Counted from the stretch's first letter, positions 1 to 55,554 are shown. The stretch: 64,000 nucleotides of DNA from Verrucomicrobiota bacterium (GCA_039818205.1 JBCBUK010000001.1:512001-576000), one strand, 5' to 3'. A program made the numbers and translations. The notes: generated by a model not told the origin, from the letters alone.

Positions 1-524
1 CCCCCGGCCTCTGATTCAATCAGTCGCTCAACTAGGATCTCAAAAATCAATCGACACCCGTGCAGGTATTTAAGCGTTCGTTCATTGTAGTCGAGGACCT
101 CGCGCCGGCATTGATTATGATTCTGCCGAAACGGCTGGGACTTACCGCGTGGTATCCGCCGAATAAAATGTCCATCACGATCGGCATTCGGAGAAAAATC
201 GCTGCTAAACTCGGTCCACATCCATTGCAGAAATTTGCAGTTACTATCATCGATTGAAGCCCAGCCAAACGGACAATCCGGGCCGATAAAAACCAACTGC
301 CTCGGTGCCAATCGCACCGTCTTCCCACGAATCACCATGCTTGGCGTCCCTTCTTCGATCACCGTGCAAACCCAGCCATCGTGCTGACATTCCGGCAAAA
401 ACTCTTTGCTGAAATCACGCCTCCCCCAAGCCAAGTATCCCAGCTGGGACCCGGAATCCGCGTCTGCCTTCCAGAAAGAGCGATCTTTTGTCGGCAAGTA
501 GAGACTTCTGTAATCGGTTTCCAA
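1..524 (-). CDS. AraC-family transcriptional regulator, N-terminal cupin-like part (partial, runs off the left edge; missing from the ORF track)
   Basis: Manual translation of the minus strand from TTG at 524 is open to the edge: LETDYRSLYLP...YLAWGRRDF...HDGWVCTVIEEGTPSMVIRGKTVRLAPRQLVFIGPDCPFGW...FLQWMW. This resembles an AraC ligand-binding cupin. It is divergent from the 651 operon. The HTH would lie outside the window and the start codon is uncertain. Confidence 0.65.
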   Translation of the reverse strand, partial: METDYRSLYLPTKDRSFWKADADSGSQLGYLAWGRRDFSKEFLPECQHDGWVCTVIEEGTPSMVIRGKTVRLAPRQLVFIGPDCPFGWASIDDSNCKFLQWMWTEFSSDFSPNADRDGHFIRRIPRGKSQPFRQNHNQCRREVLDYNERTLKYLHGCRLIFEILVERLIESEAG

Positions 525-650
525 TATAGCATCATTAGTCAAATGATTTTCGAGGCAATATCAAGCTATTTGCCAATTACAAACGCCTATGGTGTCGTTA
601 AGGAATGGTGATCGGAGCCTCCGCAGCTCCCATAAGCCCCACGCAATGCA

Positions 651-2957
651 ATGAGCACCCTTACCGCAGAGAAAGAACGCTTGCCCAACGACCCACCGGT
701 CCAACCGATGGACTACAGTTTGATCGGCACGGAATCCAAACGGGCAATCGAACAAGGCTTAGCCGAGGCGGATTGGTACACGACACCCATTCCGCGAGAA
801 GAGCTGAAACAACTGCTCACACGAAGAGATTGGCCCGCAATTCGCGACTGCTTCATATACTTTGGGCTGATTGCTTTTTTCGGCGTAGCCACCTACAGCC
901 TTTGGGGAAGCTGGTGGGCCTTCCTACCAATGATGGCATACGGAATCCTTTGGGCCTCAGCCTCGGATGCCCGCTGGCATGAATCCAGCCACGGCACGGC
1001 TTTCAAAACCGATTGGTTGAACAACCTATTGTATGAAGTCGCATCCTTCATGGTTCTACGCGAATCAGTTCCCTGGCGTTGGAGCCATACTCGACACCAT
1101 AGCGACACGATCATTGTTGGACGCGACCCCGAGATCGCAGTTCCCCGCCCACCCAATCTCCGGCAGATGCTCCTTAAGTGCATCAACTTCCAAGCCTTTC
1201 GTCGCTATCTCAAGAACATCACCCTCCACAGCCTTGGACGTGTTGCGGCCGAAGAAGCCGCCTTTATCCCCGAGAGCGAATACCCAAAGGTCTTCCTAAG
1301 AGCACGTATCTATGCCACGATCTACCTGGCAATTATCGCATTGGCGATCGTCTACCAAACCTGGCTTCCCTTCGTGTTTGTCCTGGGACCCAATCTCTAT
1401 GGGGCTTGGCTCATGCCCATCTACGGGTGGACCCAGCATGCGGGCCTCGCTGAGAATGTCCTCGACCACCGGCTCAACTGCCGGACGATTTCGATGAACT
1501 TCGTTCATCGCTTCCTTTACTGGAACATGAACTACCACCTGGAACATCATATGTTCCCGTTAGTACCCTACCATCAATTGCCGAATCTACACCAACTAAT
1601 CAAAGACGATTGTCCAGCGCCCTACCCAGGCTTAATCGCGGCCTACAAAGAGATCATCCCAACAGTACTCCGGCAGATCAAGGACCCAGGATACTACGTT
1701 AAACGGAGCCTGCCTGCCTCGGCAAAATCGACCCGAAACCATGACAATAGAAACAGCACCATTGAAGCTCGAGACACGGGGAGCGGCTGGCTCGACCTGG
1801 GCGCTGCGGATCGACTCTATCCCAATGAAATAACTCGGCTAGACCACGCAGGCCGCACCTACGCAATCTATCGCACAAAGAGCGGGCACTACTACGCGAC
1901 CGATGGCATCTGCACCCATGGCAATACTCACCTCGCGGATGGCTTTCTCAAAGGTGAAACCATTGAATGCCCAAAGCACAACGGGCGCTTTAACATTAAA
2001 GATGGCGCAGCCGTTCGGCATCCGGCCTGTGTTGCACTGAAGACCTATCCCGTGAAAGCAGATGGCGGACGCCTCCTTATCAATCTTGAAGCTGCCAGCG
2101 GCCTCGGCGCGAAAGAGCAGGCGTATCAACTCCGCGTAGTTCGCTCGCAGTACGTTGCCACATTTATCAAAGAAATAGTACTAGAACCCGCCGAGGAGAA
2201 TGGGTTGCCAGACTATCAGCCGGGGCAATATCTCCAATTTGAGATCCCAGCCTTCAACGAGATCTCGTTCAGTAACTTCAATGTTCCGGAACCTTATTCC
2301 TCAGTCTGGAAAGCTAACCATCTCTTCGATTATTGCTCAACAAACTCGGCAATCATTCGCCGCAATTATTCCTTAGCAACCTCTCCGCAAGCTGCGAAAA
2401 ATGAACTGCGTTTCAATGTTCGCATCGCAACGCCGCCTCGGGGGCTCGACTGCGACGCTGGTGTCGGCTCAAGCTACATGCACAGCCTAAGCGCAGGCGA
2501 TATCGTAACAGTCTACGGCCCCTACGGCGACTTCGAGATCAAGGACAGCGAGCGAGAAATGGTTTATATCGGCGGCGGCGCGGGCATGGCCCCGCTACGC
2601 TCGCACATCTCACATCTATTTAATACACTGCGCACAAAACGCACGGTTAGCTATTGGTATGGAGCCCGCTCGAAGCAGGAAGTGTTTTACGAAGAATACT
2701 TTCGCGCCCTGGAGAAATCGTTTCCGAATTTCACGTTTCACATTGCGCTTTCCGAACCCCAGGAGAACGACAATTGGGATGGCCCAACCGGATTCATCCA
2801 TGAGGTCGTGCGGGAACGATTGCTGTCTGAGCACCCGAATCCAGAAGGCCTCGAGTATTACTTATGTGGCCCGCCACCAATGATTCAAGCCACCCAAAGT
2901 ATGCTCACAGACGAGTGGGGCGTCTCCCAGAACAACATTGCCTTCGACGAGTTCTAG
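651..2957 (+). CDS. mocDE: Fusion of MocD-like fatty-acid-desaturase-family di-iron oxygenase + MocE-type Rieske [2Fe-2S] ferredoxin + NqrF-like FAD/NAD(P)H reductase
   Basis: Desaturase His boxes HESSH, HTRHH, QH and HLEHH, with MocD-like N-terminus DYSLIG..AIEQGLAEADWY (about 651-1715). Rieske ligands CTH...CPKH (about 1785-2095). FNR/NqrF motifs RNYSLA, FNVRIATPP, GVGSSY, GPYGDF, IGGGAGMAPLRSH, YWYGARS, YYLCGPPPM and terminal FDEF (about 2120-2957). Confidence 0.9.
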   Translation: MSTLTAEKERLPNDPPVQPMDYSLIGTESKRAIEQGLAEADWYTTPIPREELKQLLTRRDWPAIRDCFIYFGLIAFFGVATYSLWGSWWAFLPMMAYGILWASASDARWHESSHGTAFKTDWLNNLLYEVASFMVLRESVPWRWSHTRHHSDTIIVGRDPEIAVPRPPNLRQMLLKCINFQAFRRYLKNITLHSLGRVAAEEAAFIPESEYPKVFLRARIYATIYLAIIALAIVYQTWLPFVFVLGPNLYGAWLMPIYGWTQHAGLAENVLDHRLNCRTISMNFVHRFLYWNMNYHLEHHMFPLVPYHQLPNLHQLIKDDCPAPYPGLIAAYKEIIPTVLRQIKDPGYYVKRSLPASAKSTRNHDNRNSTIEARDTGSGWLDLGAADRLYPNEITRLDHAGRTYAIYRTKSGHYYATDGICTHGNTHLADGFLKGETIECPKHNGRFNIKDGAAVRHPACVALKTYPVKADGGRLLINLEAASGLGAKEQAYQLRVVRSQYVATFIKEIVLEPAEENGLPDYQPGQYLQFEIPAFNEISFSNFNVPEPYSSVWKANHLFDYCSTNSAIIRRNYSLATSPQAAKNELRFNVRIATPPRGLDCDAGVGSSYMHSLSAGDIVTVYGPYGDFEIKDSEREMVYIGGGAGMAPLRSHISHLFNTLRTKRTVSYWYGARSKQEVFYEEYFRALEKSFPNFTFHIALSEPQENDNWDGPTGFIHEVVRERLLSEHPNPEGLEYYLCGPPPMIQATQSMLTDEWGVSQNNIAFDEF

Positions 2958-2975
2958 GCGACTCGACTTAGAAAC

Positions 2976-3956
2976 ATGAACTACCAACCATTTGGACAGA
3001 CTGGGTTCCAAACCTTTCCGATTGCCTTTGGCGCCATGCGCATTGAGGCCAATGAGCGAGGTTACTCAAGCCCCCTCCTCCACGCCCTCGAACGTGGAAT
3101 TAACTTCGTCGACACCGCGCGTAACTATGGCCAAAGCGAAGAGGTCGTGGCCCGCACCCTCAAAGAATGGCGAGGCGAACAACCCTTTATCGCAACCAAG
3201 GTTAAACCGCTCGACGTAGCGAACTGGCGTTTCTACGTCCCCCTCGAAGAGCAGTTTACACCAGAGAGCATCCGAGCATCTGTTGAGACAAGTTTAACGA
3301 CACTGGGCATCGACTGCATTGACCTTATTCAGCTGCATCAATGGTATTACTTATGGTCGCATCGACCGGAGTGGCTTGAATCCCTTCTAAGTTTACAGAG
3401 TGAGGGAAAGGTTCGATTCATTGGCGTTAGCGCTCAGGACCACGAGCACGATGCCATCCTCCCTTTGATAGATAACAATGTCGTCGACGCGGTTCAGATC
3501 TTCTTCAACGCCTTCGAATCTCGGCCGCGTGTGAGCGCCCTTCCGTTGGCTCAACAATGCTGTGTCGGCGTTATTGGGCGATGCACCTTTGACCACTCAG
3601 GATCGCTAGCAACGGGAGGCAATCGAGAGACTCTCGCCGAGGACATAAAACTCGCCAATGCGTCTAAAGAGATCGTGACCGAATACCTCAATCGAATCGA
3701 TCGGCTCCGCTCCGAATTTTGCGACGGCGATTGTTCGTTGGCCGAGCTCTCAATCCGTTTCGCCCTTTCCCACCCAGGCATGTCAAACCTCGCAATCTCA
3801 CTGGCGGACGAGTCTCAAGTAGATGCCGCAATCGTGGCTGCCGACCGAGGTCCACTCCCGCAGGAGATCGTGGAGCGAATCACCAAGGACCACGTTTGGG
3901 TCAAAAACTTCTATTACTTTAGCCGGAGGACAGTCGATGGAAACTCTAGCCAATGA
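2976..3956 (+). CDS. Aldo/keto reductase
   Basis: GINFVDTARNYG (catalytic Asp/Tyr), IATK (Lys), IDLIQLH (His), GKVRFIGVS. Confidence 0.9.
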   Translation: MNYQPFGQTGFQTFPIAFGAMRIEANERGYSSPLLHALERGINFVDTARNYGQSEEVVARTLKEWRGEQPFIATKVKPLDVANWRFYVPLEEQFTPESIRASVETSLTTLGIDCIDLIQLHQWYYLWSHRPEWLESLLSLQSEGKVRFIGVSAQDHEHDAILPLIDNNVVDAVQIFFNAFESRPRVSALPLAQQCCVGVIGRCTFDHSGSLATGGNRETLAEDIKLANASKEIVTEYLNRIDRLRSEFCDGDCSLAELSIRFALSHPGMSNLAISLADESQVDAAIVAADRGPLPQEIVERITKDHVWVKNFYYFSRRTVDGNSSQ

Positions 3957-4671
3957 TCACCCTCAGCCAATACCAGTGAGTTTCGTGTTTGATGATGGCT
4001 TCACTGCCAGTTGCCTGAAGATCGCCGACGTATTTGAGTCTCGCGGCCTACGGGCAACCTTTGCCGTATTAGTCGATCACGATGGCTTTATGCCGGACTT
4101 TCCCAAAGGAGACTTTCAGCTCTGGAACGAACTCCTCGACCGTGGCCATGAAATCCATCCTCACGGTTTGGACCATTCCGATCTGACAACAATCTCCCAT
4201 GAAGACGCCGACCGTATGATCGATGATTGCTTGAACTTTTTCCAAGAGAACCTTTCTGATTTCAAGGTAGCCGACACCGTATACCACCTCACCTACAATC
4301 GGTCGACACCCTCAATAGACTCTCACCTTCTGAATCGTGTTGCTGCCATCCGAACCAACGGGAAAACTAGCAAATCCGGAACAGGGCTCAATACCCTTAA
4401 CGATCTTAGCTCGCGCATTATCAAGTGCACTGGACACGGCCCGGGCCACTGCGACGAACACCTCCAACAGTGCCTCAGCCATGCTGAGGAATCCAACGCT
4501 GCTCAATTCTGTTATATGCTGCATGGTCTAGACAATGAAGGCTGGGGCCCAATCAGCCAACAAGGCCTCGAAGAATCGCTCGACACAATACTGGTATCGA
4601 ATCGCTTGTTCTATCAACCCATCGGCTCCTTTGTTCTTGAGCATGTAAAACCAGCCTCAGCGAATGGATAA
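3937..4671 (+). CDS. Polysaccharide deacetylase (CE4/NodB-like) family protein, no signal peptide
   Basis: FVFDDG motif, GLRATFAV, and GHEIHPHGLDH metal-binding His pair. Start moved to the ATG at 3937, which has GGAGGA just upstream and overlaps the previous stop region. Confidence 0.8.
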   Translation: METLANDHPQPIPVSFVFDDGFTASCLKIADVFESRGLRATFAVLVDHDGFMPDFPKGDFQLWNELLDRGHEIHPHGLDHSDLTTISHEDADRMIDDCLNFFQENLSDFKVADTVYHLTYNRSTPSIDSHLLNRVAAIRTNGKTSKSGTGLNTLNDLSSRIIKCTGHGPGHCDEHLQQCLSHAEESNAAQFCYMLHGLDNEGWGPISQQGLEESLDTILVSNRLFYQPIGSFVLEHVKPASANG

Positions 4672-5689
4672 GATTAAAACCGCAATAATCGGCTATGGGC
4701 GAACGGCCCAAAACCTGCACGCAGCTGGCCTGCGCTCCAACAGCGAATCGTTTCAGGTCAACGCCGTTGCAGGTGTAACGCCAGGCAATCTCGAACAGGC
4801 AAAAGCAGATTTTAACTGCGAGACCTACACGAACTATCAGGCGATGCTCCAGGAGCAAGATCTCGACTTGGCCATCGTAACGACTCGCAATCACCAGCAT
4901 TGCAGCATGGCTATTGATGCGCTCAATAGCGGCGCGCATGTTCTGGTTACCAAGCCAATTGGCATCAACCAAATAGAGGTTGAGCGCATCTATGACGCAG
5001 CGGAGAAGGCTGGCCGCAAAGTCTTCCCTTATCTGCCAGCGCGGTGGGGAAGCGACTTTCGCCGCATCCAGGAGATCGTTAACTCAGGAGAGATCGGCAA
5101 GGTCTTTTCAATCCGTCGTTCAGTGTATGGCTTTGCCACCCGTGATGATTGGCAAACAGAAACCCAATCGGGTGGTGGCATCATCCTCAACTGGGGAGCG
5201 CACCTGATCGATCCACCAATGCAAATCGCCGGCGGTAACCCCAAACAACTTTATGGGTCATGTAGACGACTTCTCAACTCCGGTGATGCCGAAGACTGCT
5301 TCTACTCGATAATCGAAATGGACAACGGTATTCGAGTCCACGCGGAGTGGTCGTTTGCGCCAAAGGGCTTGGCGAATTGGTTTGTCCAAGGAACCCGTGG
5401 CGCTATCATCGTCAACGGAACGCAGCTTGAAGTCCATGCTGGCGAGCCGTCAAAACCAAGCGACCCCACCTGTTTCAAAAACATGGAGGGCAACGGATAC
5501 AACTCACGAGAGGAAACGCTCAGCGACGCAATCTACGGAGACCCCGTTGAGATCTATCGTTCGGTGGCTCAAGACCTATTTCACCGCATTCCGTTTCCCA
5601 TTGTAAAGAATGATGTAGTCCAACTCACTCGGGCGATGGACGCCATCAAGGTCGCTCAAAACTCCAGCCAACTGATTCAATTATCATGA
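4664..5689 (+). CDS. Gfo/Idh/MocA-family NAD-dependent oxidoreductase
   Basis: Rossmann motif TAIIGYGR, HVLVTKP (variant of EKP), GGGIILNWGAHLID, AED. Overlaps the upstream gene by 8 nt. Confidence 0.92.
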   Translation: MDKIKTAIIGYGRTAQNLHAAGLRSNSESFQVNAVAGVTPGNLEQAKADFNCETYTNYQAMLQEQDLDLAIVTTRNHQHCSMAIDALNSGAHVLVTKPIGINQIEVERIYDAAEKAGRKVFPYLPARWGSDFRRIQEIVNSGEIGKVFSIRRSVYGFATRDDWQTETQSGGGIILNWGAHLIDPPMQIAGGNPKQLYGSCRRLLNSGDAEDCFYSIIEMDNGIRVHAEWSFAPKGLANWFVQGTRGAIIVNGTQLEVHAGEPSKPSDPTCFKNMEGNGYNSREETLSDAIYGDPVEIYRSVAQDLFHRIPFPIVKNDVVQLTRAMDAIKVAQNSSQLIQLS

Positions 5690-6615
5690 TTTTTTTAACC
5701 GGTTTCGCCGATGAAGCGGCCGACAATATTGACGGGCAGATTCGCGCGATTCAGCAGCTTGGCTGGTCGCACATCGAGCTGCGTTCGATCGACAAGATTA
5801 ACATCACCGATATCCCCAACAAGGACTTCGAGATCGTCGCCGACCAAATCGAAAAGGCCAACCTTCAAGTCAATGCCTTTGGCTCGACGATATGCAACTG
5901 GGGAAAGTCGATTCTCGAACCGATGGACCGGGATCTTGAAGAGATCGAACGCGCAATCCCGCGAATGCAAGCACTGGGCACGAGGTACGTTCGGATCATG
6001 AGCTATGGCGTGCTCCGCGACCGCGATCCAAACGATCAATTTGTTGAAGAACGAATCAAGCGACTTAACCAAGTCGTCGAGCGTTTTGCCGACGCTGGAT
6101 TGCAAGCATTGCACGAGAACTGCGCCAACTATGGCGGGATGGGCTGGCAGTTCACTCAGCGGCTCCTCGACGGCGTGCCCGGACTTCAGCTGATCTTTGA
6201 CACCGCTAACCCAGCAACAACCTTGGACCGCTCAAAGCCGATGCCCTACCCCACGCAATCGCCATGGGAGTTCTATCAGAATGTGCGCGATCACATCGCC
6301 CATGTGCACGTTAAAGATGGGCGCTTCATCGCCGACAATCCTGACTCGATTTTCGAAGACGCAGAATACGTTTGGCCCGGTGAAGGCGACGGTGACGTCA
6401 AACGTATCGTCGAAGACCTCATCCATAACGGGTACCAGGGTGGCTTCAGCATCGAGCCTCATCTGTCCGTCGTCTATCATGACGAGAACCAGAACAGTCC
6501 CAAACAATACCGATTCGAGAGCTTCATCGAATACGGCAAGCGCCTAGAACGAATCATCGACGAAATTCGAAACAACGCCGCAAGCACCCAACCGACCGCC
6601 ACTAAACTCCCATGA
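5686..6615 (+). CDS. Sugar-phosphate isomerase/epimerase, xylose-isomerase-like TIM barrel (MocC/IolE superfamily)
   Basis: LTGFADE, LHEN, LIFDTAN, HVHVKD, PGEGDG and SIEPH metal-ligand motifs. ATGA overlap with the previous gene. Confidence 0.88.
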   Translation: MIFLTGFADEAADNIDGQIRAIQQLGWSHIELRSIDKINITDIPNKDFEIVADQIEKANLQVNAFGSTICNWGKSILEPMDRDLEEIERAIPRMQALGTRYVRIMSYGVLRDRDPNDQFVEERIKRLNQVVERFADAGLQALHENCANYGGMGWQFTQRLLDGVPGLQLIFDTANPATTLDRSKPMPYPTQSPWEFYQNVRDHIAHVHVKDGRFIADNPDSIFEDAEYVWPGEGDGDVKRIVEDLIHNGYQGGFSIEPHLSVVYHDENQNSPKQYRFESFIEYGKRLERIIDEIRNNAASTQPTATKLP

Positions 6616-8188: not shown

Positions 8189-9340
8189 ATGAGAAAAAAC
8201 CGTCTCGTATGGGCTGTACCTGTGTGCTGTCTCATCGCATCACTATCGACTACCTCAATGCACGCGGCAACGCGTTACCTCTCGAACTATTCCGGCGACT
8301 TCAAATCACGCATGACCGCTGCGGTCAATCAGTCCAGCAGTGGCGACGTGATTAGCGTCAACGTAAACCTCAATGCAAATAGTCCCTACACACTGACCAA
8401 GAGCGGCCTAACCTTGACCGGCAACGGAACAATAACCGCAAACGGCAGCAAAATACTCAACCTAAAGGCAAGCAATACCACCATCAAGAACATCACGTTT
8501 AATGGTGGAACCCGCACGATTGATGTTACCTCAAATGGAACCCTGAACAACATCACCTTTGACAATGTGAAGGTGAAAAACGGGCCTTACCGAGGCATTG
8601 GTTTCTATGAAACCAATATAAACAACATTACGGTCAAAAACTGTACCTTCACGAACAAACCGTTCTCTGTGGAGATCCATGACTGCGCGATGGCCACGAA
8701 TGTGACCATCACCAACAATACCTTCAACTCGAGTGATCATCAGGTTTCGCTCGATTGTGCCGACCTCGGGAACAACCTGAATCACAGCAACATCCGCATC
8801 ACTAACAACACCTTCAACGTGACGGCTCGCCATAACCTTGCGCTGGCAAACATGAAGGCCAGCCTAATCAAAGGGAATGTTATGAAAGGTGGAACCGCTG
8901 GCTACACCCAGTGTGTGCACATCGAAGACCGCACCCGAGGAGCCTACATCAAGGAAAACCAAATGACTAACTGGGGCAATGGAAGTGGCTCTGGCGATGC
9001 CGTGATCATCTACACAACCGATCGATTCGGTCACGGAACCGGCGCTCTCCTTACCCCACAACAAAAGCGCGCCTACGCATCTGGTCCCGTATCACTCGAG
9101 AATAATACGATCATTGGCGCCGGGCGGCATGGCGTGCTGATCAGCTACTTACAAGGGAAAGCCAACTTTTGGGGAAATAACCAAACCCTCAAAGGAAACA
9201 ACAAGGCGATCTTCAAGAGCAACATCGTGAATACCTCCCAGCTCAACATCGCAGATTCAACCAAGTTCAAAAACAATCGGACTTGGGGCGTCTTAAAGAA
9301 CTGGTCGCCCAGCGCAAGAAGCGGTTACGTCAACTTCTAG
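8189..9340 (+). CDS. Secreted right-handed parallel beta-helix protein (pectin-lyase-like fold), function unknown
   Basis: Signal peptide ending SMHA. Repeated Asn-ladder strands NTTIKNITF, NNITFDNVKV, NNITVKNCTF, NVTITNNTF, NIRITNNTF. Confidence 0.75.
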   Translation: MRKNRLVWAVPVCCLIASLSTTSMHAATRYLSNYSGDFKSRMTAAVNQSSSGDVISVNVNLNANSPYTLTKSGLTLTGNGTITANGSKILNLKASNTTIKNITFNGGTRTIDVTSNGTLNNITFDNVKVKNGPYRGIGFYETNINNITVKNCTFTNKPFSVEIHDCAMATNVTITNNTFNSSDHQVSLDCADLGNNLNHSNIRITNNTFNVTARHNLALANMKASLIKGNVMKGGTAGYTQCVHIEDRTRGAYIKENQMTNWGNGSGSGDAVIIYTTDRFGHGTGALLTPQQKRAYASGPVSLENNTIIGAGRHGVLISYLQGKANFWGNNQTLKGNNKAIFKSNIVNTSQLNIADSTKFKNNRTWGVLKNWSPSARSGYVNF

Positions 9341-9355
9341 CAATACAATAACGCT

Positions 9356-10171
9356 ATGGCGAAACACCTTCCGTTTTGGTTGGGCTTTGCTGCGCTTACA
9401 TTTCTCCTCGGGTTCTACACCCGAGGAGTTATTGCGACTGCGCCGCAAACGCCAAGCCCTTTGGTAATTTCCGATCTACCAATTCCATCGACCTCCGATG
9501 ATCGAGAAGACACTCACGTTGAACGCCTAGAGGCCGAACTCGAAACCGAATCGGCGCTCGAGCCGATTGATTTGGTGATCTTTGACCCCGATAACCCGGT
9601 GGAACGGCTGCAGGCACTTGAAACCGTCCGATACGAACTGCCAGGCTCCGCGTTCAACCGACTCGTTCCCGACGCATTCGACGATGAACATCATATTTCC
9701 GCGGAAATGCGGGCACTGATGGATCTATCCGAAGAAGAAACTGAGCAGCTAAATGGAATGCTCGACCGGTCAATGATGGAGCTCCGTGCTATCGAAGAAG
9801 CTCAGGTTGTCGCAAGAGTCGGAAAAAATGGCGAGCTTACGTTCACAATTCCTCCCTATCCAGACCAAGGGCTCAAAGTTCGGGCGGCACTTTTGCGGAA
9901 CATCGAATCAGGCCTGGGCGAATCACGCCGACACTTATTCGAAATGATGCTCATTCAAAAACCGTCTTCCTTTGGTAACTTCGGCAAGGACACCATCGCA
10001 GTCCGAAATCCAACCTTTGAAACCGTCAACGGCTGGCGCGAAATCGTTACGATCCAAGTCGGCAAAATGGTCGACATTGGCACCGAAGACGAGCGCTTCG
10101 AAGGCGTCGAACGCGCATTTCTACCAGCCGCATTCCAAAAACGCTACGGACATTTCTTCGACTTCGAATAA
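9356..10171 (+). CDS. Hypothetical protein with an N-terminal membrane anchor
   Basis: 271-aa ORF 15 nt after the beta-helix gene, with an N-terminal hydrophobic helix (FWLGFAALTFLLGFY) and an acidic soluble remainder. Confidence 0.65.
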   Translation: MAKHLPFWLGFAALTFLLGFYTRGVIATAPQTPSPLVISDLPIPSTSDDREDTHVERLEAELETESALEPIDLVIFDPDNPVERLQALETVRYELPGSAFNRLVPDAFDDEHHISAEMRALMDLSEEETEQLNGMLDRSMMELRAIEEAQVVARVGKNGELTFTIPPYPDQGLKVRAALLRNIESGLGESRRHLFEMMLIQKPSSFGNFGKDTIAVRNPTFETVNGWREIVTIQVGKMVDIGTEDERFEGVERAFLPAAFQKRYGHFFDFE

Positions 10172-10218
10172 ACCAAAAACAACCAAGAGACTGGAAAAAG
10201 CGGTTAGGCGATTCGCAC

Positions 10219-11076
10219 TTACCGAGGCGGAGCCTCATAGACGGCATCTTTGAAGTCGTCACGATCTTCCATCTTGATCTTCACGACATCGTCATCAGAG
10301 ATGTTTGTAACTTGAACTGCATCGTCAGGAATCGCAAATGAGCGATATGTCACCCGCTCCGGATTCCGGGAGTCCTGGAACACGATGATCAAATGTCGAC
10401 CATCCCGCTTTACTGCATAGCGCTTTTTTTCAATAACGTAGCTTTCTTCATTATTGAAACCAGCCATCGCAAACGGCACGAAAAAGCGCCGCGTGTCACC
10501 TGAAAACGAGTAGTCCTTCAAACTCATGGGAACGATATCTGCAATCGTTTCACCGACCATTGCCCGAACGGTCTGCTTACTGAAATTAATGATGCGAACC
10601 TTATTTTTCCCAAAATCATAACCACCGATGTCGACTGCCCGGGCGGAAAGGCGCCGCTGCGAATTCGGAGTCATAATAATCAGCTTGGTTCCAGGTTTGC
10701 CAAGGTCGACCCTTGCCATCGGTTGACGAACCATACCACCCTCGCCATCAGGAACCTCCTTAAAAAAGGTGAGGACACTTGAGCCATTGGAATAGGACAT
10801 GGCGCGCGATAGCTGATTCGGGTAAGCAGCCACTTGGTAGACCTCGTCGCCGTTCGTAGCGAACTTGAGATCAACACCAGAATCCAATACGCCGCTACCA
10901 ATATCGTTTTTCGCGAAATACAGGACATGAAAAATGTAGCGATCAGCTTTCTCGTCAGCAGAACCGCGATTTTGGGCCAACAGCCCCACAGACGGGGCTG
11001 TCAACGAAATGCAAACAAGCAATATAAAACCTATAGTCTTCTTCGAAAAGGACATGAGAAATAGCGTGAGAGACAA
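10219..11076 (-). CDS. Hypothetical exported protein, companion of the PilX-like giant protein
   Basis: 285-aa ORF 6 nt downstream of 11083..14781 on the same strand. Signal-like N-terminus and beta-rich body (VRIINFS). The start may be the second Met (MSFSKK). Confidence 0.7.
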   Translation of the reverse strand: MSLTLFLMSFSKKTIGFILLVCISLTAPSVGLLAQNRGSADEKADRYIFHVLYFAKNDIGSGVLDSGVDLKFATNGDEVYQVAAYPNQLSRAMSYSNGSSVLTFFKEVPDGEGGMVRQPMARVDLGKPGTKLIIMTPNSQRRLSARAVDIGGYDFGKNKVRIINFSKQTVRAMVGETIADIVPMSLKDYSFSGDTRRFFVPFAMAGFNNEESYVIEKKRYAVKRDGRHLIIVFQDSRNPERVTYRSFAIPDDAVQVTNISDDDVVKIKMEDRDDFKDAVYEAPPR

Positions 11077-11082
11077 TCGTTA

Positions 11083-14000
11083 TTAAATTTCATTTTCGCT
11101 CAGCCAGCGAAACGATACCACTTCAAATTTTCGACCGAATTGTTCGTTTACTGCCGAAAAGTTAGCAGGATCGTCGAACGAACGGTTCGAAGGGTCAACG
11201 AAATCTGGTGAACGCTGAACAACCATCTCACAGTAGGCCTTGGCAGTTTCCTGCCCAGTGAGTGGATCCACTGCACTTCCAAAAGAACGAATCGTAAAAG
11301 TATCGCTTCGAGCGGTGAGAGCCGGCCCAATCTTCGCTAAGACATCCGCTTGAGTGAGTGATCCTGGCGCGCCGTCGATGAATGGACGGTTTCTTACGAC
11401 TTCGAGTGACTCACCATAGTAAGGAGCCGTTTCAGTGGGAAGGGGGGCAGTAATATAGTCAATATTCCAAAGGCCATCGCCGAGCTGGGTCCCCCATGTC
11501 TCATTCAGAGCCGGCCGTCCATTGATTTCCGATTGTTCGATCGCAAACTGCAAGGGACCGGTATAGGCAAACCGTCGGCGATCAGATTGAGATACGTCGG
11601 AAGCATCAATTGACCGGTTCACGAATGCTCCCAAAGACAGAAATGGATAGCCTCGGGCAGCTGAACGGGTCTTGATTTCATCGACAATCGAATTTGCTAA
11701 CGCGGTGATCTGATTATCGGAAAGATTTCGATATCCAGCCACCAAGGAATCAATTCCAGCGTCGTTATAGTCAGGCTTTTCACCCGTCGATGAGAGCTTT
11801 GGTGCGGCAAACCGCGCAAAATTATGTCGAAGGTCTTGAGATACGGAAGCCTGTCCCAACGTTTGAACGTCACGAAGTGCTCCAAGAATAGACTCCCATG
11901 CAGCGACTGAAGTAGAATTCACATTGAAACCACCTTCCAAATACAAATTGGCAGCGGCTCGGGTATTGTCTAACAGGTCGCCAGTGGTCACCGAGTTGTT
12001 CTTCTTAATCATCCGTCCGTTCGGAAGCGGGAAAGAAACACCGGGATTCAATGACGGGATGATCGATGACATAAAAAACTCATCCCAAAGAGCCTCATTC
12101 AAGAGATAGGAGTAGTCGTAGTGAGCTCCATTGTAGTTATTGGGCATACCACGCGGACCACCATTGAAGAATCCGGATGTGTCATTAATCGCTAGACTGG
12201 TCTCAGTCAGCGGAAGGTGGATGTTCGCGATCGAATTACCAATTGCATAGGTCGGCATGGTAAACGGTTGCTGCATGTTAGAATACCAGGAATTACCGTC
12301 TAACGAATGGCCCACGCGATCGACATTCATCAGATTTGCGTGCATGAACTGGCCAATTCCGACAGGGGGCCGAGTTGGGGCCTGGAACAAGATCATTTGG
12401 TCACTACCTTGTTCGGCACCGTCATCGTGTCCGAGACCAACATAGGCGACACCACTGTCGACACCACCAAGGTAATTACTTGTCTGCGTATTCGAGCTAT
12501 CCCACCACGCGGTTGGATTTGTTCCGTAAAGGCGATAAATAAACGTTCTTCCAGAATTCGGGAGACCACGCATCGAACGGACATGGGCCTGATCAGTGAC
12601 GTACGGAGCTCGCGGATTCATCTGTGACAACAAATGAACGGTTTGCTCGTTCCAATAATCATATTCAGGTCCTTCGGTGTTCGCGAATTTCATTCGCAAA
12701 CCGGTCCCGATAAGCGTGGTAGCCCACGACTCAACAATATTCAGATCGACGTCAGAAATGCCAGTGTTGCCTTCAGTCGCAGAAGAACCGGCGGGAAAAA
12801 CAAAATCATTAAATGAAGTGAAACCGCTGTCCAGCTCACGAATATCAACTACCCGAGGAGCTTTACTGGTGCGATAATACACTCCTGGCCCAGCGCCAAT
12901 AACCGCCAAAAAGCGAAGGTCAGGATTGGCATCATCCTCGAACGGAGCTGAATAAAGATTAGTGACCTGCAAGTCGACATTTGCGTGAGGCGCGAATGCA
13001 ATCCGCGATTTTGAATTTGGATCAGCCTCATTAAACTTGAACGGAATAGTTGTCGTATCAACCCCAGCTGAACCAGCTGCCGGAGTCTTGGGTGGAATGT
13101 TTCGTGGCTGGCTGAAAAATCCAGTAACCAATGACCCACCGGCACCCTCGCTCAAGACATTATTGGTGTAATCACCGAAATCCATGAATGAGTTCACCGA
13201 TGGCGTGTATGTCCGAGCCTCGCCCGCTGGAATGACTCCTCCTTGAATGCGGAAGCCAATCATGTTGCGGTTCTGATCTTGCGGGTGTGTGAAATGAGAA
13301 CCCCACTTATTGATCAAGTCGGCTAGGTTATCATCGCCGGGATTATTGATATTTGGAGCTTGGCCATTAAGTCCACGATGATCTACGAGAAATACTCCCC
13401 GCATATCTGTCTCGAGTCCCAGATCAGGGATCGTCATGTCCTCGTCGTAGGGATTCCATAGAGTGATGAGAGGAAAAATTCCAACGGAGTACTGATAGTC
13501 GATCGCCAGATCTTCGGTTTGGCTAGATACTACACTCTTACGATCAGCAAATACTTGAACGATAAAGTGAAATCGGGTCATGATTGGAGCAATGGCGTTC
13601 GTATCATTATCCTGCAGCTCGAAATTTATGCCAGTGCCAGGATTTCCTGCTACCGACTCCTGGTAGAAGTCGGCCAACTGTTCCCATGTCGGTCCACCAG
13701 GGTCGCCATCTTGCACACCACCACCGGTAATGGCAGGAAAAATGGGTCCAGTAAGATCGTTTGGTAAGACTTCCAAGGCAGTTGAAAGGTCACGTTTGAT
13801 GCCTCCATCTTTGACATTCGTCAGCACCGATTTGGAATCGACCGTGAACTCGTGGAAAAACTCGCGTTGAAGATCCGCCTTATCATTATCTTCTGTAAGG
13901 AGAGAAATCGATTCATTGTCTGCTACACTAACAACCGGGGTCGATTCATTTCTCCAAAGTGAAACAGCTGCCGAATTGCCCGGAGAAAAGCGGCGGTTTC

Positions 14001-14781
14001 CATCCTCATCAACGGTAACCGAGGGGTCAGCAAACTGGGCGATTGAAGCGTCGTAATATCGAAGATTGTCCGCAGACGCTCCTTGGTAAGGACTATCCAT
14101 GTTGACGCGTGCTTTTACACCGTCGTCACTAACCCAGTATGCATAATAACCGCTCAGGAAATTCTCGGCGTCGCGAATTTCAACGCGAGGCGCCTGAACA
14201 GTCTCTTCCGGACGATTCACAGAAACGTCCTCGGTTGCTAGCGCAACCCTATCTGCGGCGACATTATTAACGTCGGGGTTTTCTCCACTCACTAGCCACT
14301 GGACGTTATTATTATCCAAACCTACCAGAACATCAGTCGCGTCGTTAAGCGGATTTCCAGATTGGTCCAGCTTTGACGACCAAACACCGGTCCAATGCGC
14401 TTGCCCTTGAGTGATGTTCACGGTTGGACCACCCGGATCAAAAATCACGTCTGCCCGAGCGGTAACTCGCTGGTCGGGGCCGGCTAGCTCTTGCAGTTGG
14501 GCGAGCGCCGTCATGGCTCCCATGCGGGCATTCATTTTCGCTTGCTCTTCGGCTTTGGAAATCGTCGCTGTTGCGGTCTCGACTTTCACCATTGTTACGA
14601 GGCTCAAGACGAGGAGAACGATGAAAGCCATCAATCCAAGGGCGATCACAAGGGCGAAGCCACCTTCGGACCGACTGCGCGGCGCTCGAAAGCCGCCACG
14701 GTTACCGTCAACACCGATGGACCCAGATCGTAGAGGGATGGCTGATCCAAGGGTGTGCGGGGGTAAATTACTAGTTTTCAT
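11083..14781 (-). CDS. Large PilX/GspK-like minor-pilin protein (Verru_Chthon cassette protein A-like)
   Basis: Prepilin-like site EGG|FALVIALGLMAFIVLLVLSL, then AKMNARMGA..LQELAGPDQRVTARA and YAYWVSDDGVKA. C-terminus GFNVNSTSVAAW, RSDTFTIRSFG, CEMVVQR, FGRKFEVVSFRWL matches this Verrucomicrobial family as I recall it. Confidence 0.8.
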   Translation of the reverse strand: MKTSNLPPHTLGSAIPLRSGSIGVDGNRGGFRAPRSRSEGGFALVIALGLMAFIVLLVLSLVTMVKVETATATISKAEEQAKMNARMGAMTALAQLQELAGPDQRVTARADVIFDPGGPTVNITQGQAHWTGVWSSKLDQSGNPLNDATDVLVGLDNNNVQWLVSGENPDVNNVAADRVALATEDVSVNRPEETVQAPRVEIRDAENFLSGYYAYWVSDDGVKARVNMDSPYQGASADNLRYYDASIAQFADPSVTVDEDGNRRFSPGNSAAVSLWRNESTPVVSVADNESISLLTEDNDKADLQREFFHEFTVDSKSVLTNVKDGGIKRDLSTALEVLPNDLTGPIFPAITGGGVQDGDPGGPTWEQLADFYQESVAGNPGTGINFELQDNDTNAIAPIMTRFHFIVQVFADRKSVVSSQTEDLAIDYQYSVGIFPLITLWNPYDEDMTIPDLGLETDMRGVFLVDHRGLNGQAPNINNPGDDNLADLINKWGSHFTHPQDQNRNMIGFRIQGGVIPAGEARTYTPSVNSFMDFGDYTNNVLSEGAGGSLVTGFFSQPRNIPPKTPAAGSAGVDTTTIPFKFNEADPNSKSRIAFAPHANVDLQVTNLYSAPFEDDANPDLRFLAVIGAGPGVYYRTSKAPRVVDIRELDSGFTSFNDFVFPAGSSATEGNTGISDVDLNIVESWATTLIGTGLRMKFANTEGPEYDYWNEQTVHLLSQMNPRAPYVTDQAHVRSMRGLPNSGRTFIYRLYGTNPTAWWDSSNTQTSNYLGGVDSGVAYVGLGHDDGAEQGSDQMILFQAPTRPPVGIGQFMHANLMNVDRVGHSLDGNSWYSNMQQPFTMPTYAIGNSIANIHLPLTETSLAINDTSGFFNGGPRGMPNNYNGAHYDYSYLLNEALWDEFFMSSIIPSLNPGVSFPLPNGRMIKKNNSVTTGDLLDNTRAAANLYLEGGFNVNSTSVAAWESILGALRDVQTLGQASVSQDLRHNFARFAAPKLSSTGEKPDYNDAGIDSLVAGYRNLSDNQITALANSIVDEIKTRSAARGYPFLSLGAFVNRSIDASDVSQSDRRRFAYTGPLQFAIEQSEINGRPALNETWGTQLGDGLWNIDYITAPLPTETAPYYGESLEVVRNRPFIDGAPGSLTQADVLAKIGPALTARSDTFTIRSFGSAVDPLTGQETAKAYCEMVVQRSPDFVDPSNRSFDDPANFSAVNEQFGRKFEVVSFRWLSENEI

Positions 14782-28783: not shown

Positions 28784-30640
28784 TTATGATTGTTCAATCA
28801 GATTAACTTGTAAAACGACGCAAGCCACCTTGCCTCCAGTATCCGGATAGATAATCTCCACGGTGTTCTCTTCGCGGACGTATTCCATAGGCACAGGCAC
28901 TTCGATCATACCAAAAAAGTTTGCGCGACCGGCTTGATCATCTCCGGCCCAATTGTCGGGAATTTGTAAGTCATAACCATTGAACTCGATCGAATCAGGC
29001 AGCACTTGCTTGCCCAACTCGCGACCAGGTGAGAGGCGCAGAATCGCACCACCGGCCCCGGTAGGCGTATCGACAAATGTAAACTCAATCGGTTCGCCCG
29101 AATTAATATCTTTTAGATAGTCAGTGGCATAAACACGGTGTTCGGCAACCCGGCCGCGGATCCCAACGGGTTCCGGCAAATCGACAATGATCATCGCTCC
29201 CATACCAGGGAGTAAGTTCATTTGATGGGGAATTTCTGGAAGGACCATTTCACCAACGCGAGGCTGCTCGCCATTAGTCGTCAATACGCGAGCGGTGATG
29301 GCGACTGGCTCCAGGTCCTCGAGACCGGAAAGCTCCAGCAGCATGTTTTCGTGAGCCAGATTTGCGAGGATAACCCAAAGTCGATTACCGTCGTTTAACA
29401 AGTGCACCCGAACATCGGGGTTTGAACTCTGGCTTACGCGCCACTGCCCTTCCACCCCTTTCCAAAACTCATAGAAAAGCATGAGGTCCGTCGTCACGAA
29501 ATTTCCCTCAGCAGTCCGGCGCCAAAGTAAAAATGGATTAGCCTGCCCTGGCTCGCCCGTCCCCTTCAAACTGTAGGTCCAAAGCGCCTTCCCCAACACA
29601 AACGGAATCGTTTTCAGGAGGCGGTCTGGGTGATCCATGTAAGTCATATTCTGGCCGTTGATCGAGTAAAGCATCCCACCCGAGCGAGCGGGGCTATAAT
29701 CCATCATACCCATGTTGCCCTCTGGGATCTTGCCGTACTCAGTAATCATGAGCGGCTTGGCGACACCAAACTTAATGTGGCTGTAGGTATCGATCAAATC
29801 CATGATCGCCTCAGAATTACTTCCAGTGCGATCGCGCGGCGTGCCCTCAACGTTGACACCGTCGTATACATGGTAGGAAAAGAAATCCATGTTCTCTCCC
29901 GCGATATCCATGAAGGTCTTTTGCCAATTGTTCCAATGATCAAAGTTTCGGGCCTCAACCTCGACCCATGCTGCCGAGTACCCACCAACCATCACATCGG
30001 GATTCAATTCGCGCACCCGCTTGGCAACCACGTTGTGCTGCTCCGATAGCCGCTGGACATCGGTCCCGATCTTCTTCGCCTTCACAAAGGGCTCATTGAA
30101 TACCTCGATGTATTTCGGGCGCTGATCATGGTCGTAGTAATGTTTCAGAAACTGAGCGGTAAACTCGGCAACGCCTTCGTAAGTGCGTGGCCCCCACGCT
30201 GCGTGATCATTGTCCGGCATTGCATGCATGAGCTCCGGATGCGTGCAAATCACCAACTCCCGCATGTGCTCGGTCGTTGCCGCAGGAAAGCCGCTTAAGT
30301 GTTCACGCTGGCGCTTACCCTGCTCTGCCATCTGCTCGACATCCGGCATATCCGGGTTGTCGGCACTCGCGCGGATGCCCTTGGCTGTGCCAGATAGGTT
30401 GCCGCCGTCTCGCCCATAACGAGCATCCAGCTCGTTGCCGAGATAGACCCGCTCCTCTTTCGTCAAGGAGCGGGACCCAAAGTTCTCGTGGACTGTAATA
30501 AACTGATTGCGATCAAACTCTGTCACACCGCCGATATCGCGGATATAGTCAGGAGCTAACTGAATTTCCACAAGCTCGTCCTGCCCGACCAATAGAGTTG
30601 GAATCAGGGCAAACAGCGTGAAGAGTCTCATCGTGATCAA
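28784..30640 (-). CDS. GH86 beta-porphyranase/beta-agarase
   Basis: Signal peptide, [16 protein letters not shown], clan GH-A acid/base EVFNEP and nucleophile [16 protein letters not shown], and a C-terminal beta-sandwich ([10 protein letters not shown]). Resembles BpGH86A-type enzymes. Confidence 0.85.
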
Positions 30641-41363: not shown

Positions 41364-42797
41364 TTATACCGGCTGCTTTGTGAATCCGATCGGACGCGGG
41401 TTCGAAGTAATATTCGTAAAGTTCGATAGATTCGGCAACACATAGGACATATCGGAAGCAGACACACCAAACCAGCACGCCATTTCCGCAAAAAACTCAT
41501 CGATCGAAGTCGTTGGGAGTATTCGGCCACCCAAGCCCACGTCGTCTGCACCATCAAGTGCCAGACTCGGAAAAGTCCCATAGACTCTGCCCCCATCAAT
41601 TGGGCCACCCCAAGCCATCTGCACTCCACCCCACGCATGGTCAGTTCCTCGACCATTGGATCGCAAGGTCCGGCCAAAATCTGAAGCGGTGTAGGTGATT
41701 ACCTCGTCAGCAACGCCAAAATGCTCCAATGCTTGCTGATAGGCGGAGATTGTTTCGGATAGCTCGTCGAGCATACCGGCTTGCGTGTTCAGCAGCTCGC
41801 CATGATGGTCCCAACCGCCTCGAGTGACATAGATCGTATTGCGACGGAGCCCGAGATCGGCCCGAGCAGCAACCGTTTTCGCAGCAGCCCGCATATCCTG
41901 CCCAAACTTGGAACTCGGAAAAAGACCTGCGACTGCTGAGTCATCGATCGCATCATAGTGACTTTTGAAAATTTCCTGAGCCTCACGACTCTCAGTCATA
42001 TGATTGGCCAGAGCGTCCTGCATCAGATTATTATAGGTCTGAGCAAGCAGATTTTCCATCGCGTAATTCTTCCGTCCTGTCTGAGAATTCAGATTCGGAC
42101 TGTTGCCCGTAGGCAGCAACGCACCGGCATTAGTAATCGAAAACTGTGCAGTATTGTTACCAATCTGATAAACATTGTTGCCCGCCAGCGAAATACTCAT
42201 CGCAGTCGACCCCGTGTTCAAGGTCGAGTGCAACACGTCAGCCATTCGCCCCGCCCATCCGGTCAGTTCGGTCATCCCCTGGGGAACGGACGTCTGCCAG
42301 TGGTAAATCTGGTCGATGTGGGAAAATAGAGCCTTCGGAATGGTCGATCCACCAGCAAGGTATTGCGCAAGGGTCGTTGGCTCAATCAGCGTACCAATGT
42401 TGGCTATGAATGCCAGGCGACGCTTTCCACTAAAGGGACCTGTGCCGTTAAACATTTGCGCCAGCTCGGGACATGATGGATGCAACCCGTAAAGGTTACC
42501 ATCATTTCCAGAATCCTGATCCAAACCAATCAGGTCTCCCTGGCTTAATGCCATGCTGGTTCGCGCCGCACTGTATTCATTGTAACCAGCATCACGGCGC
42601 ACCAGGACATTGAAGCTGTCGCAACCACCGGCGAGCATAATGCAGACCAGCGACTTGCGGTCGTCGCCGGTTGGCAAATTCGCTGCCGCAGCGTTATTCG
42701 CTAACTTTAGATTCAACAGCAGCGACATGATCGACGTTGAGCCGACCGCCGCACAACTCATTTCACCAAGGAACTGTCTTCTAGATAGATTTTTCAT
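41364..42797 (-). CDS. DUF1501-family protein with a Tat signal
   Basis: SRRQFL twin-arginine motif, LVCIMLAGGCDSFN, LFSHIDQ, GWAGR, GGWDHH, SDFGRT, GTDHAWGG. Confidence 0.92.
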   Translation of the reverse strand: MKNLSRRQFLGEMSCAAVGSTSIMSLLLNLKLANNAAAANLPTGDDRKSLVCIMLAGGCDSFNVLVRRDAGYNEYSAARTSMALSQGDLIGLDQDSGNDGNLYGLHPSCPELAQMFNGTGPFSGKRRLAFIANIGTLIEPTTLAQYLAGGSTIPKALFSHIDQIYHWQTSVPQGMTELTGWAGRMADVLHSTLNTGSTAMSISLAGNNVYQIGNNTAQFSITNAGALLPTGNSPNLNSQTGRKNYAMENLLAQTYNNLMQDALANHMTESREAQEIFKSHYDAIDDSAVAGLFPSSKFGQDMRAAAKTVAARADLGLRRNTIYVTRGGWDHHGELLNTQAGMLDELSETISAYQQALEHFGVADEVITYTASDFGRTLRSNGRGTDHAWGGVQMAWGGPIDGGRVYGTFPSLALDGADDVGLGGRILPTTSIDEFFAEMACWFGVSASDMSYVLPNLSNFTNITSNPRPIGFTKQPV

Positions 42798-42807
42798 AAC
42801 CGGATCC

Positions 42808-47121: not shown

Positions 47122-47122
47122 T

Positions 47123-55306: not shown

Positions 55307-55554
55307 TAGCAAACGAGTTGTGGGCCCATTAACGCAAAACAGTTTTCTGGGCAGAGAATCGGACCCAAAGCGAGCCAGGCGCATATGCATATCCCTTTTG
55401 CGCGCGCCTGGCTCATTGATCCGGATATCCCAATGAAATCCCGCGGCCTCGCTACCGTTTAACCTGGAAGGAGCTCTGTCTAAAAAAACTGTTTTCGAAA
55501 GAATCATTAAAGTGTGGAAAACGATTTTGGTTAATCTGGGACCTGCTGCACGCT

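Follow-up and report, generated by a model that had tools for sequence, protein, structure and literature searches.

A three-domain protein and its database name

The subject of this analysis is a single gene near the start of a 64,000-nucleotide stretch of DNA from a Verrucomicrobiota bacterium (GCA_039818205.1 JBCBUK010000001.1:512001-576000; hereafter the window, numbered from its first letter). Positions 651-2957 of the plus strand form one open reading frame (ORF) of 768 amino acids without internal stops, and its product, P0001, joins an oxygenase-type membrane domain, a ferredoxin and a reductase in one polypeptide. A reading of the DNA made earlier from the sequence alone (the sequence-only reading) had taken the protein for a fusion of relatives of MocD, MocE and NqrF and proposed that it removes methyl groups from sugars or cyclitols. 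The parts of the gene are as follows:

651..2957, plus strand: whole fusion P0001 of 768 amino acids, with a di-iron membrane domain, a Rieske ferredoxin and an NqrF-type FAD/NADH reductase
708..1730, plus strand: MocD-like oxygenase domain of the membrane di-iron type (residues about 20-360), bearing the three His boxes and both hydrophobic hairpins
1788..2084, plus strand: MocE-type Rieske [2Fe-2S] ferredoxin domain, residues 380-478
2121..2957, plus strand: NqrF-type FAD/NADH reductase domain, residues 491-768

Domain calls, made at Pfam gathering cut-offs and NCBIfam curated cut-offs, together with the motifs agree with the anatomy proposed earlier, a di-iron domain with all its His boxes followed by a Rieske domain and an NqrF-like reductase. 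The Pfam model FA_desaturase (PF00487) matches residues 87-326 with 114.5 bits against a cut-off of 29.7, which places this part of the protein in that superfamily, and its His boxes are H110-ESS-H114, H146-TR-H149-H150, and H296-LE-H299-H300 (HxxxH, HxxHH, and HxxHH; eight His ligands). The Pfam Rieske model covers residues 380-467 (62.1 bits), with the ligands C421-T-H423 and C440-PK-H443; the NCBIfam model MocE_fam_FeS (TIGR02377) is the top Rieske model by about 54 bits and spans residues 380-478, but its 123.2 bits lie below the cut-off of 136.15, and by this comparison the domain is MocE-like, short of formal membership in that family. The C-terminal part matches FAD_binding_6 (residues 552-629, 27.5 bits) and NAD_binding_1 (residues 640-749, 63.1 bits), carries an FAD motif at R571-N-Y-S574 (RxYS) and an NAD motif at G641-GGAGMAP (GGxGxxP), and ends in F768; these domains and motifs, with the structural match given below, are those of an FNR-like reductase fold. 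The His, Cys, and Gly residues of the motifs are invariant across 35 fused homologues (alignment A1), the oxygenase motifs are invariant in a set of 36 sequences of which 35 are unfused (alignment A4), and three further histidines, H193, H263, and H273, are likewise invariant in both alignments.

Kyte-Doolittle hydropathy finds two long hydrophobic stretches, at residues 62-86 (peak 1.7) and 213-247 (peak 2.13), and no long one after residue 365. AlphaFold models predict these stretches to be two helical hairpins, with helix pairs 60-83/88-113 and 208-235/239-262; the mean confidence is pLDDT 78 and pTM 0.64 for the whole protein and pLDDT 81 and pTM 0.80 for the oxygenase domain alone, and is lowest in the inter-domain linker at 360-370. 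Hydropathy gave no hydrophobic N-terminus of the kind seen in signal peptides, which should allow the Rieske and FAD domains to meet cytoplasmic NADH. A Foldseek search with the whole 768-residue model returned reductase matches only, in which the reductase domain is 44-46% identical to solved NqrF FAD domains (TMt 0.91-0.94, rmsd 1.5-2.2) and 12-25% identical to other FNR-family reductases. With the oxygenase domain alone, Foldseek returned nothing at E <= 0.001, and VIA-align gave a subunit of the chloroplast FtsHi motor complex (8xks_K, Z 19.8, 12% identity), the alkane hydroxylase FtAlkB (8sbb, Z 10.7 over 269 aligned residues), and SCD1 (Z 4.5); neither method found a close solved structure for this domain. 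P0001 resembles the AlkB alkane hydroxylases, FtAlkB included, in its membrane His-box di-iron fold, but the identity is 15%, and AlkB substrates are hydrophobic whereas the neighbours of P0001 are sugar genes. Some AlkB proteins are fused to their own electron carrier, which in AlkB is rubredoxin.

The sequence-only reading had also expected automated pipelines to label the fusion as NqrF or as a desaturase, and NCBI and JGI do so: homologues are named 'NADH:ubiquinone reductase (Na+-transporting) subunit F', and fragments and unfused forms are named 'fatty acid desaturase'. These names agree with the score of P0001 against the NCBIfam nqrF model (TIGR01941), 321 bits for a cut-off of 295. 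However, only residues 491-768 are matched, to model positions 129-403 of 405, and since the match begins at position 129 the N-terminal membrane anchor and plant-type 2Fe-2S domain of NqrF are absent from P0001, as had been described. The N-terminal 480 residues belong to another enzyme altogether, and in this genome, which is 99.97% complete, a profile search for NqrB (TIGR01937), the one other subunit searched for, had no match at E <= 0.001, while the sole nqrF match over cut-off is the C-terminal third of P0001 itself, with no full NqrF. P0001 is like the NqrF of the Na+-translocating NADH:quinone reductase (4u9u, 8ad4, 7qty) in its C-terminal 280 residues, including RxYS and GGxGxxP, and unlike it in having that reductase joined to Rieske and oxygenase domains. 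NqrF as a name for the whole protein is refuted by the partial model match, the foreign N-terminus, and the absent NqrB; there is practically no chance that P0001 serves as the F subunit of that complex, and on its domain content the label on these homologues is wrong. Carried by hundreds of proteins, it can give the false impression that a genome encodes a sodium-pumping NADH:quinone reductase.

Relatives and origin of the fusion

The triple fusion is a genuine gene and not an artefact of assembly, a doubt that the sequence-only reading had raised. In each of the 120 best database homologues (58-69% identity, 752-928 amino acids) the desaturase, Rieske, and NAD-binding domains share a single chain, and 587 stretches (contigs, one genome per species) encode a relative, the hosts among the matches listed being Verrucomicrobiota, Acidobacteriota, Planctomycetota, Kiritimatiellae, a few Bacteroidota, and one Pseudomonadales metagenome-assembled genome. 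Cultured carriers include Luteolibacter algae, Roseibacillus persicicus, Rubellicoccus peritrichatus, Algisphaera agarilytica, and Wenyingzhuangia gilva. In addition, an independently assembled Logan contig spans window positions 400-3200 in one piece with 0 differences; it comes from a run that is probably the source sample, so it confirms contiguity and is not independent DNA. The public sequencing runs searched for this DNA comprised that one DNA run, two runs of the same study with almost none of it, and no RNA run.

Among 301 genomes of the window's class, 39 have a MocD-like match and 25 have the full fusion. Within the class the oxygenase occurs alone, beside a separate Rieske gene, in a two-domain fusion, and in the triple fusion. 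A quick maximum-likelihood tree of the oxygenase domain (46 rows) groups the 35 triple fusions in a single clade (SH-aLRT 99) that excludes the unfused forms from Verrucomicrobiota and rhizobia; we excluded one row from the reading of the tree (F2_L090, branch length about 10) whose first 350 residues are not a MocD domain. A single fused clade suggests a single fusion event that was followed by spread across phyla.

The nearest relatives outside the fused forms are desaturase-family genes paired with a MocE-family ferredoxin, which puts P0001 in the MocD-type branch; the DesB equivalog model, by comparison, scores 42.8 bits. On plasmids of Rhizobium and Sinorhizobium, two adjacent genes, one annotated 'fatty acid desaturase family protein' and the other 'MocE family 2Fe-2S ferredoxin', share 47-53% identity with residues 21-479 of P0001. 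In these loci a gene for a separate FAD-dependent oxidoreductase comes after the MocD/MocE-like pair, and the upstream side holds a LacI regulator and a TIM-barrel gene. With E 7e-74 to 1d7y, the rhizobial partner reductase falls in the BphA4/putidaredoxin-reductase class, and the reductase of P0001 is of NqrF type, so the earlier description of a MocD/MocE homologue with a swapped-in reductase was correct.

In rhizobia, mocDEF belongs to rhizopine catabolism and its promoter is rhizopine-inducible, according to one report (PMC10107442). P0001 shares with rhizobial MocD, MocE, and MocF, which act in the catabolism of 3-O-methyl-scyllo-inosamine, and with MocDEF-like clusters the same three parts (reductase, Rieske ferredoxin, and membrane di-iron oxygenase), the same His boxes and Rieske ligands, and a TIM-barrel gene and sugar-type regulator close by. 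It differs in being one polypeptide rather than three, in its NqrF/FNR rather than BphA4-type reductase, in the phyla of its hosts, and in a Rieske domain just below the MocE cut-off, and the fused forms make up a separate clade; the comparison was made with plasmid MocD-like genes outside rhizopine loci. The fusion architecture is a widespread, uncharacterised variant of the MocDEF kind, and our literature search, which had most subscription journals outside its reach, yielded no publication that describes this fusion or a di-iron enzyme demethylating sugars.

The operon and the neighbourhoods of related loci

P0001 is followed by five genes on the same strand and preceded by a divergent regulator:

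1..542, minus strand: AraC-family regulator of 285 amino acids, of which the window holds the N-terminal 180 codons (start at 542, running off the window start); HTH_18 77 bits, HTH_AraC; whole gene at L001 535-1392 (minus) and L109:17686-18543 (minus)
2976..3956, plus strand: aldo/keto reductase (AKR), 326 amino acids, 18 nt after the fusion; Aldo_ket_red 132 bits
3976..4671, plus strand: CE4-like 'polysaccharide deacetylase' family protein; Polysacc_deac_1 40.7 bits; ORF opens at 3823
4664..5689, plus strand: GFO/IDH/MocA-family NAD(P) oxidoreductase, 341 amino acids; by Pfam
5686..6615, plus strand: xylose-isomerase-like TIM-barrel protein, 309 amino acids; AP_endonuc_2 82.5 bits
6612..7931, plus strand: MFS transporter, 439 amino acids, the final gene of the operon; MFS_1, Sugar_tr

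The spacing between these genes runs from -134 to +18 nt by ORF coordinates, and from -8 to +19 nt if the CE4-like gene starts at 3976. Its start is likely the GTG at 3976 or 3985, giving about 230 amino acids, because the orthologue in locus L006 has 230; from this gene to the transporter, gene ends overlap by 4-8 nt. The order of the operon is kept in 4 other marine Verrucomicrobiota loci (L004-L007), where the aldo/keto reductase also directly follows the fusion and an orthologous AraC gene (cluster 9) lies divergently upstream. The aldo/keto reductase has weak matches only in the PDB, the third being L-galactose dehydrogenase (E 1.8e-12, residues 1-201); the GFO/IDH/MocA protein is related to DgpA2, DgpA1, DgpA, glucuronide 3-dehydrogenase, and inositol dehydrogenases, and reaches 76 bits with the iolG model against a cut-off of 355; and the TIM-barrel protein has no sequence match in the PDB. 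Sulfatase genes flank the operon on both sides, and two further genes of the window bear on the discussion below:

28784-30640: GH86-type porphyranase by Pfam (BPA_C and Porphyrn_cat_1), the nearest GH86, 21 kb past the end of the operon
62733-63932: alpha-L-fucosidase

The rest of the window holds several other features. Four ORFs without a Pfam match (383, 271, 285, and 1232 amino acids) lie at 8189-14781 between the operon and the next sulfatases, the longest faintly resembling Verru_Chthon cassette protein A at its N-terminus (21 bits). On the minus strand, a DUF1800/DUF1501 gene pair (41364-45678) and two proteins of the 3-keto-disaccharide-hydrolase family (45946-47166 and 54656-55507) stand among the sulfatases, and proteins of the latter family are also found near the fusion in L005, L006, and L013. 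A 784-residue regulator at 48763-51117 (minus), with two Peripla_BP_3 and two HTH_18 domains by Pfam, resembles two XylR/AraC-type sugar regulators joined by tandem duplication or by fusion.

We surveyed the neighbours of the fusion in the best 80 of the 587 stretches plus the window, using a simple ORF caller, single-linkage blastp clusters, and Pfam and NCBIfam searches of cluster representatives. Eight loci in which no ORF clustered with the fusion were dropped (L012, L022, L028, L037, L038, L042, L059, and L065), leaving 73, some of which cover the oxygenase and Rieske part only (for example L005, L027, L048, L073, and L076). Antisense shadow ORFs (cluster 26) were ignored, and 94 of 196 unclustered neighbours were annotated, namely those within 2 genes and of at least 170 amino acids. 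The recurrent neighbours are:

39/73 loci: sugar transporter, epimerase or sugar-binding protein
38/73 loci: any xylose-isomerase-like TIM barrel (clusters 1, 7, and 11)
28/73 loci: unnamed family of ~296 amino acids (cluster 1), a probable divergent TIM barrel
23/73 loci: aldose 1-epimerase
15, 7, and 6 of 73 loci: AraC regulators, in three main clusters
13/73 loci: GFO/IDH/MocA
12/73 loci: AKR; 11 of these loci also hold a member of one of three unrelated hydrolase families
7/73 loci: parts of a corrinoid methyltransferase system (MtaA/CmuA-like URO-D, corrinoid protein, RACo activator), in Verrucomicrobiota, Kiritimatiellae, and Acidobacteriota
5/73 loci: glutathione-independent formaldehyde dehydrogenase FdhA, 710 bits against a cut-off of 637

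Sugar-related genes therefore recur beside the fusion, and no lipid genes appear among the annotated recurrent neighbour clusters. The Bacteroidota copies lie within polysaccharide loci, one with a GH78 rhamnosidase, two GH2 genes, and a RhaT-like transporter (L008) and another with SusC/SusD (L078). Other neighbours include a fucosidase, rhamnogalacturonase-like, GH63-like, and GH65-like genes, carbohydrate esterases, and unrelated housekeeping genes. In 4 of the 5 genomes with FdhA at the locus, that gene is the only one in 4.9-7.2 Mb to score as FdhA. The corrinoid methyltransferase parts directly adjoin the fusion in L015, L033, L034, L039 (5525-8535), L040, L071, and L077, and a corrinoid set and a fused oxygenase at one locus may provide anoxic and oxic routes for one methylated substrate.

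The commonest neighbour, the family of ~296 amino acids (about 270-300; for example L053:4733-5623 and L008:9143-9955), does not occur in the window and is usually the next gene downstream of the fusion. It has no Pfam or NCBIfam match, and its invariant residues include an E-T-H-R run and two more histidines. Its profile aligns weakly with the TIM-barrel neighbours (hhalign probability 15.9%, E 0.0016) and has a weak match to the TIM-barrel dehydratase AsbF (3dx5, E 5e-7); given the latter match, it is probably a divergent xylose-isomerase-like TIM barrel. Two further fusions stand close to the oxygenase gene in related loci: an aldose 1-epimerase with a GFO/IDH/MocA oxidoreductase (L032:13131-15266, 711 amino acids) and a BNR_2 sialidase-like domain with a xylose-isomerase-like TIM barrel (L008:1188-3110, 640 amino acids).

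Candidate functions of the fused oxygenase

The function that we favor for P0001, with a probability of roughly one half, is O2- and NADH-dependent O-demethylation of an imported methyl sugar or possibly cyclitol. It is the best supported because it draws together the anatomy of the protein, its sugar neighbours, a minority of one-carbon (C1) neighbours, and the relationship to MocDEF. The general idea of a methyl-ether demethylase for sugars or cyclitols in the sequence-only reading has thus held up, by way of sugar and C1 neighbours in other genomes, while its link to agar and porphyran has not.

From these features we infer the topology, electron path, substrate class, and reaction as follows. 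P0001 would be a self-sufficient inner-membrane monooxygenase that faces the cytoplasm and belongs to the MocD (rhizopine-oxygenase-like) branch of the fatty-acid-desaturase/AlkB superfamily. NADH would reduce the FAD of the C-terminal NqrF-type domain, and single electrons would pass from the FAD to the Rieske [2Fe-2S] cluster and on to the His-box di-iron centre, where O2 would be activated. The MFS transporter of the operon may import a methylated monosaccharide or cyclitol, the methyl carbon of whose O-methyl ether would be hydroxylated to a hemiacetal that splits into free sugar and formaldehyde. The freed sugar could then be processed by the aldo/keto reductase and the CE4-like hydrolase, at a guess as aldose 1-dehydrogenase and lactonase, and by the GFO/IDH/MocA protein and the TIM barrel, at a guess as dehydrogenase and isomerase or dehydratase, with the divergent AraC regulator presumably controlling the operon.

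Several observations weigh against O-demethylation. The operon of the window has no formaldehyde-handling gene, and a search of the genome limited to FrmA (TIGR02818) and FdhA (TIGR02819) found neither over the cut-offs, the best candidate being an alcohol dehydrogenase (ADH) beside a cytochrome P450 with 239 bits where 544 are required. C1 neighbours occur in only 12/73 loci, and since all 5 FdhA cases are in Acidobacteriaceae they represent few independent events. Another 16/73 loci lack any sugar or C1 cluster, and the neighbours in the survey include ordinary housekeeping genes. The rhizobial relatives in L002 and L003 adjoin cob and nad genes rather than the mocA/B/C/R rhizopine locus, and even the demethylation of rhizopine by MocDEF is reportedly a proposal, made by Bahar et al. 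in 1998. The literature search described above found no measured activity for any enzyme of this branch, and it would be unusual for a membrane enzyme to act on a water-soluble sugar. Finally, pairs of GFO and TIM-barrel genes fit cyclitol catabolism and keto-sugar chemistry equally well.

The last point leads to the alternatives that keep the substrate close to carbohydrates. P0001 might demethylate O-methyl cyclitols such as rhizopine-like inosamines or pinitol, not sugars, with the GFO/IDH/MocA and TIM-barrel proteins acting as inositol dehydrogenase and inosose isomerase or dehydratase in the manner of rhizobial MocA and MocC. The homology to MocD/MocE-like pairs and the recurrence of both families among the neighbours are consistent with this, as is the fact that the top named NCBIfam model for the GFO neighbours is inositol 2-dehydrogenase IolG (76-82 bits) and that the top models for one TIM-barrel cluster are IolO and IolE-like; but the scores with the iol models are far below their cut-offs (76 against 355 and 72 against 300), the second commonest neighbour is aldose 1-epimerase, which acts on reducing sugars, and glycoside hydrolases, SusC/SusD, and sulfatases surround several copies, which makes cyclitols in place of sugars as the substrates decidedly unlikely. 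An unlikely reading, if a somewhat less strained one, is that P0001 oxygenates a C-H bond of the sugar itself, for example the terminal methyl of a 6-deoxy sugar (L-fucose to L-galactose or L-rhamnose to L-mannose) or another ring position, and feeds the product to the AKR, hydrolase, and dehydrogenase genes. Membrane di-iron relatives such as AlkB hydroxylate terminal methyls, in keeping with the FtAlkB fold match; fucosidase, rhamnosidase, and RhaT-like transporter genes lie beside some copies (L008, L040); the window itself has an alpha-L-fucosidase; and the AKR resembles L-galactose dehydrogenase. That resemblance is weak and confined to the first 201 residues, however, the reaction is without precedent, and the FdhA and corrinoid methyltransferase neighbours would be left unexplained. 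That P0001 is an ordinary lipid desaturase or hydroxylase carrying its own redox partners, as the FA_desaturase match and the DesB Delta(10) desaturase model might suggest, is highly improbable: the latter score is a small fraction of its cut-off of 500 bits, the identity to MocD-like genes is far above that to any desaturase model, the operon holds sugar-type genes and a transporter where recurrent lipid genes are lacking, and the genome has two other FA_desaturase-family genes as candidates for lipid desaturation.

The sharpest version of the sequence-only reading would have a more specific substrate, 6-O-methyl-D-galactose from agar or porphyran, with P0001 as a convergent replacement for the P450 demethylase CYP236A. 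The setting of the operon in a sulfatase-rich region, the GH86-type porphyranase in the window, and the 12 matches to BPA_C, a GH86 marker, in the genome are compatible with such a role, and the closest relative of P0001 (69% identity, genome G082) has a BPA_C match 15 kb from its fusion on the same contig. The 12 matches lie on 7 contigs, far above the number in nearly all of the 301 class genomes, and the organism looks like a red-algal galactan specialist. However, the one P450 of the genome has the solved Zobellia CYP236A2 (6g5o/6g5q) as its best match (E 3e-108, with the next entry at 3e-40) and stands outside the window (G000:C6:178600-182130, minus strand; L084/L085 8607-12125) in a cluster of 2Fe-2S ferredoxin (139 amino acids), P450 (383), Zn-ADH (431), and PF00756 esterase (271), beside which no ferredoxin reductase was seen. 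The structure codes are those of CYP236A2 and the enzyme is reported as specific for 6-O-methyl-D-galactose in one paper (PMC6292453), and the same ferredoxin-P450-ADH-esterase arrangement is described for CYP236A clusters in another (PMC10033563).

The distribution of the two systems does not suggest replacement either. Among the 301 class genomes, which are related to one another so that the counts are descriptive, a CYP236A-like gene occurs in 24 and a fusion or MocD-like match in the 39 noted above, and both occur in 4 where 2-3 would be expected, which is about chance level and shows no anti-correlation. BPA_C is found in 7 of these genomes, in 6 of them over cut-off, and the fusion in 2 of those 6, so that 23/25 genomes with the full fusion lack BPA_C over cut-off; one genome (G136) has 10 BPA_C matches and a P450 without the fusion, and most carriers among the matches listed are soil or freshwater Acidobacteriota and Verrucomicrobiota. 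With the nearest GH86 of the window also well outside the operon, a role as the porphyran demethylase is very unlikely. P0001 and CYP236A would be alike in an oxidative sugar O-demethylation that uses O2 and NAD(P)H and yields formaldehyde, as in the P450 system (PMC6292453; PMC10033563), and both occur in genomes that degrade algal glycans; they differ in that CYP236A is a soluble heme-thiolate P450 with separate redox partners and P0001 a membrane di-iron protein with fused ones, and this genome carries both. Because a CYP236A-type system is already present, the substrate of P0001 here, if it is a demethylase, is probably a methylated sugar of a sulfated algal glycan other than 6-O-methyl-D-galactose.

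Methyl ethers are common on the sugars of algal, plant, and microbial glycans, where they block ordinary catabolism, and CYP236A is the only sugar O-demethylase with measured activity found in the same literature search. If O-demethylation is the function of P0001, this gap would be filled by a widespread di-iron enzyme that is self-contained and acts on other methyl sugars; it would tie glycan turnover to formaldehyde and C1 metabolism, and could offer a one-gene catalyst for biotechnology. A broader generalization, which we offer tentatively and regard as possible rather than probable, is that fused MocD-type oxygenases are the main aerobic means of removing O-methyl groups from many sugars, with substrates beyond those of CYP236A, in polysaccharide-degrading Verrucomicrobiota, Acidobacteriota, Planctomycetota, and some Bacteroidota, and that the corrinoid sets are their O2-free counterpart at the same loci. 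If so, these enzymes would represent an unrecognised and widespread source of glycan-derived formaldehyde and methyl groups in soil and sea.

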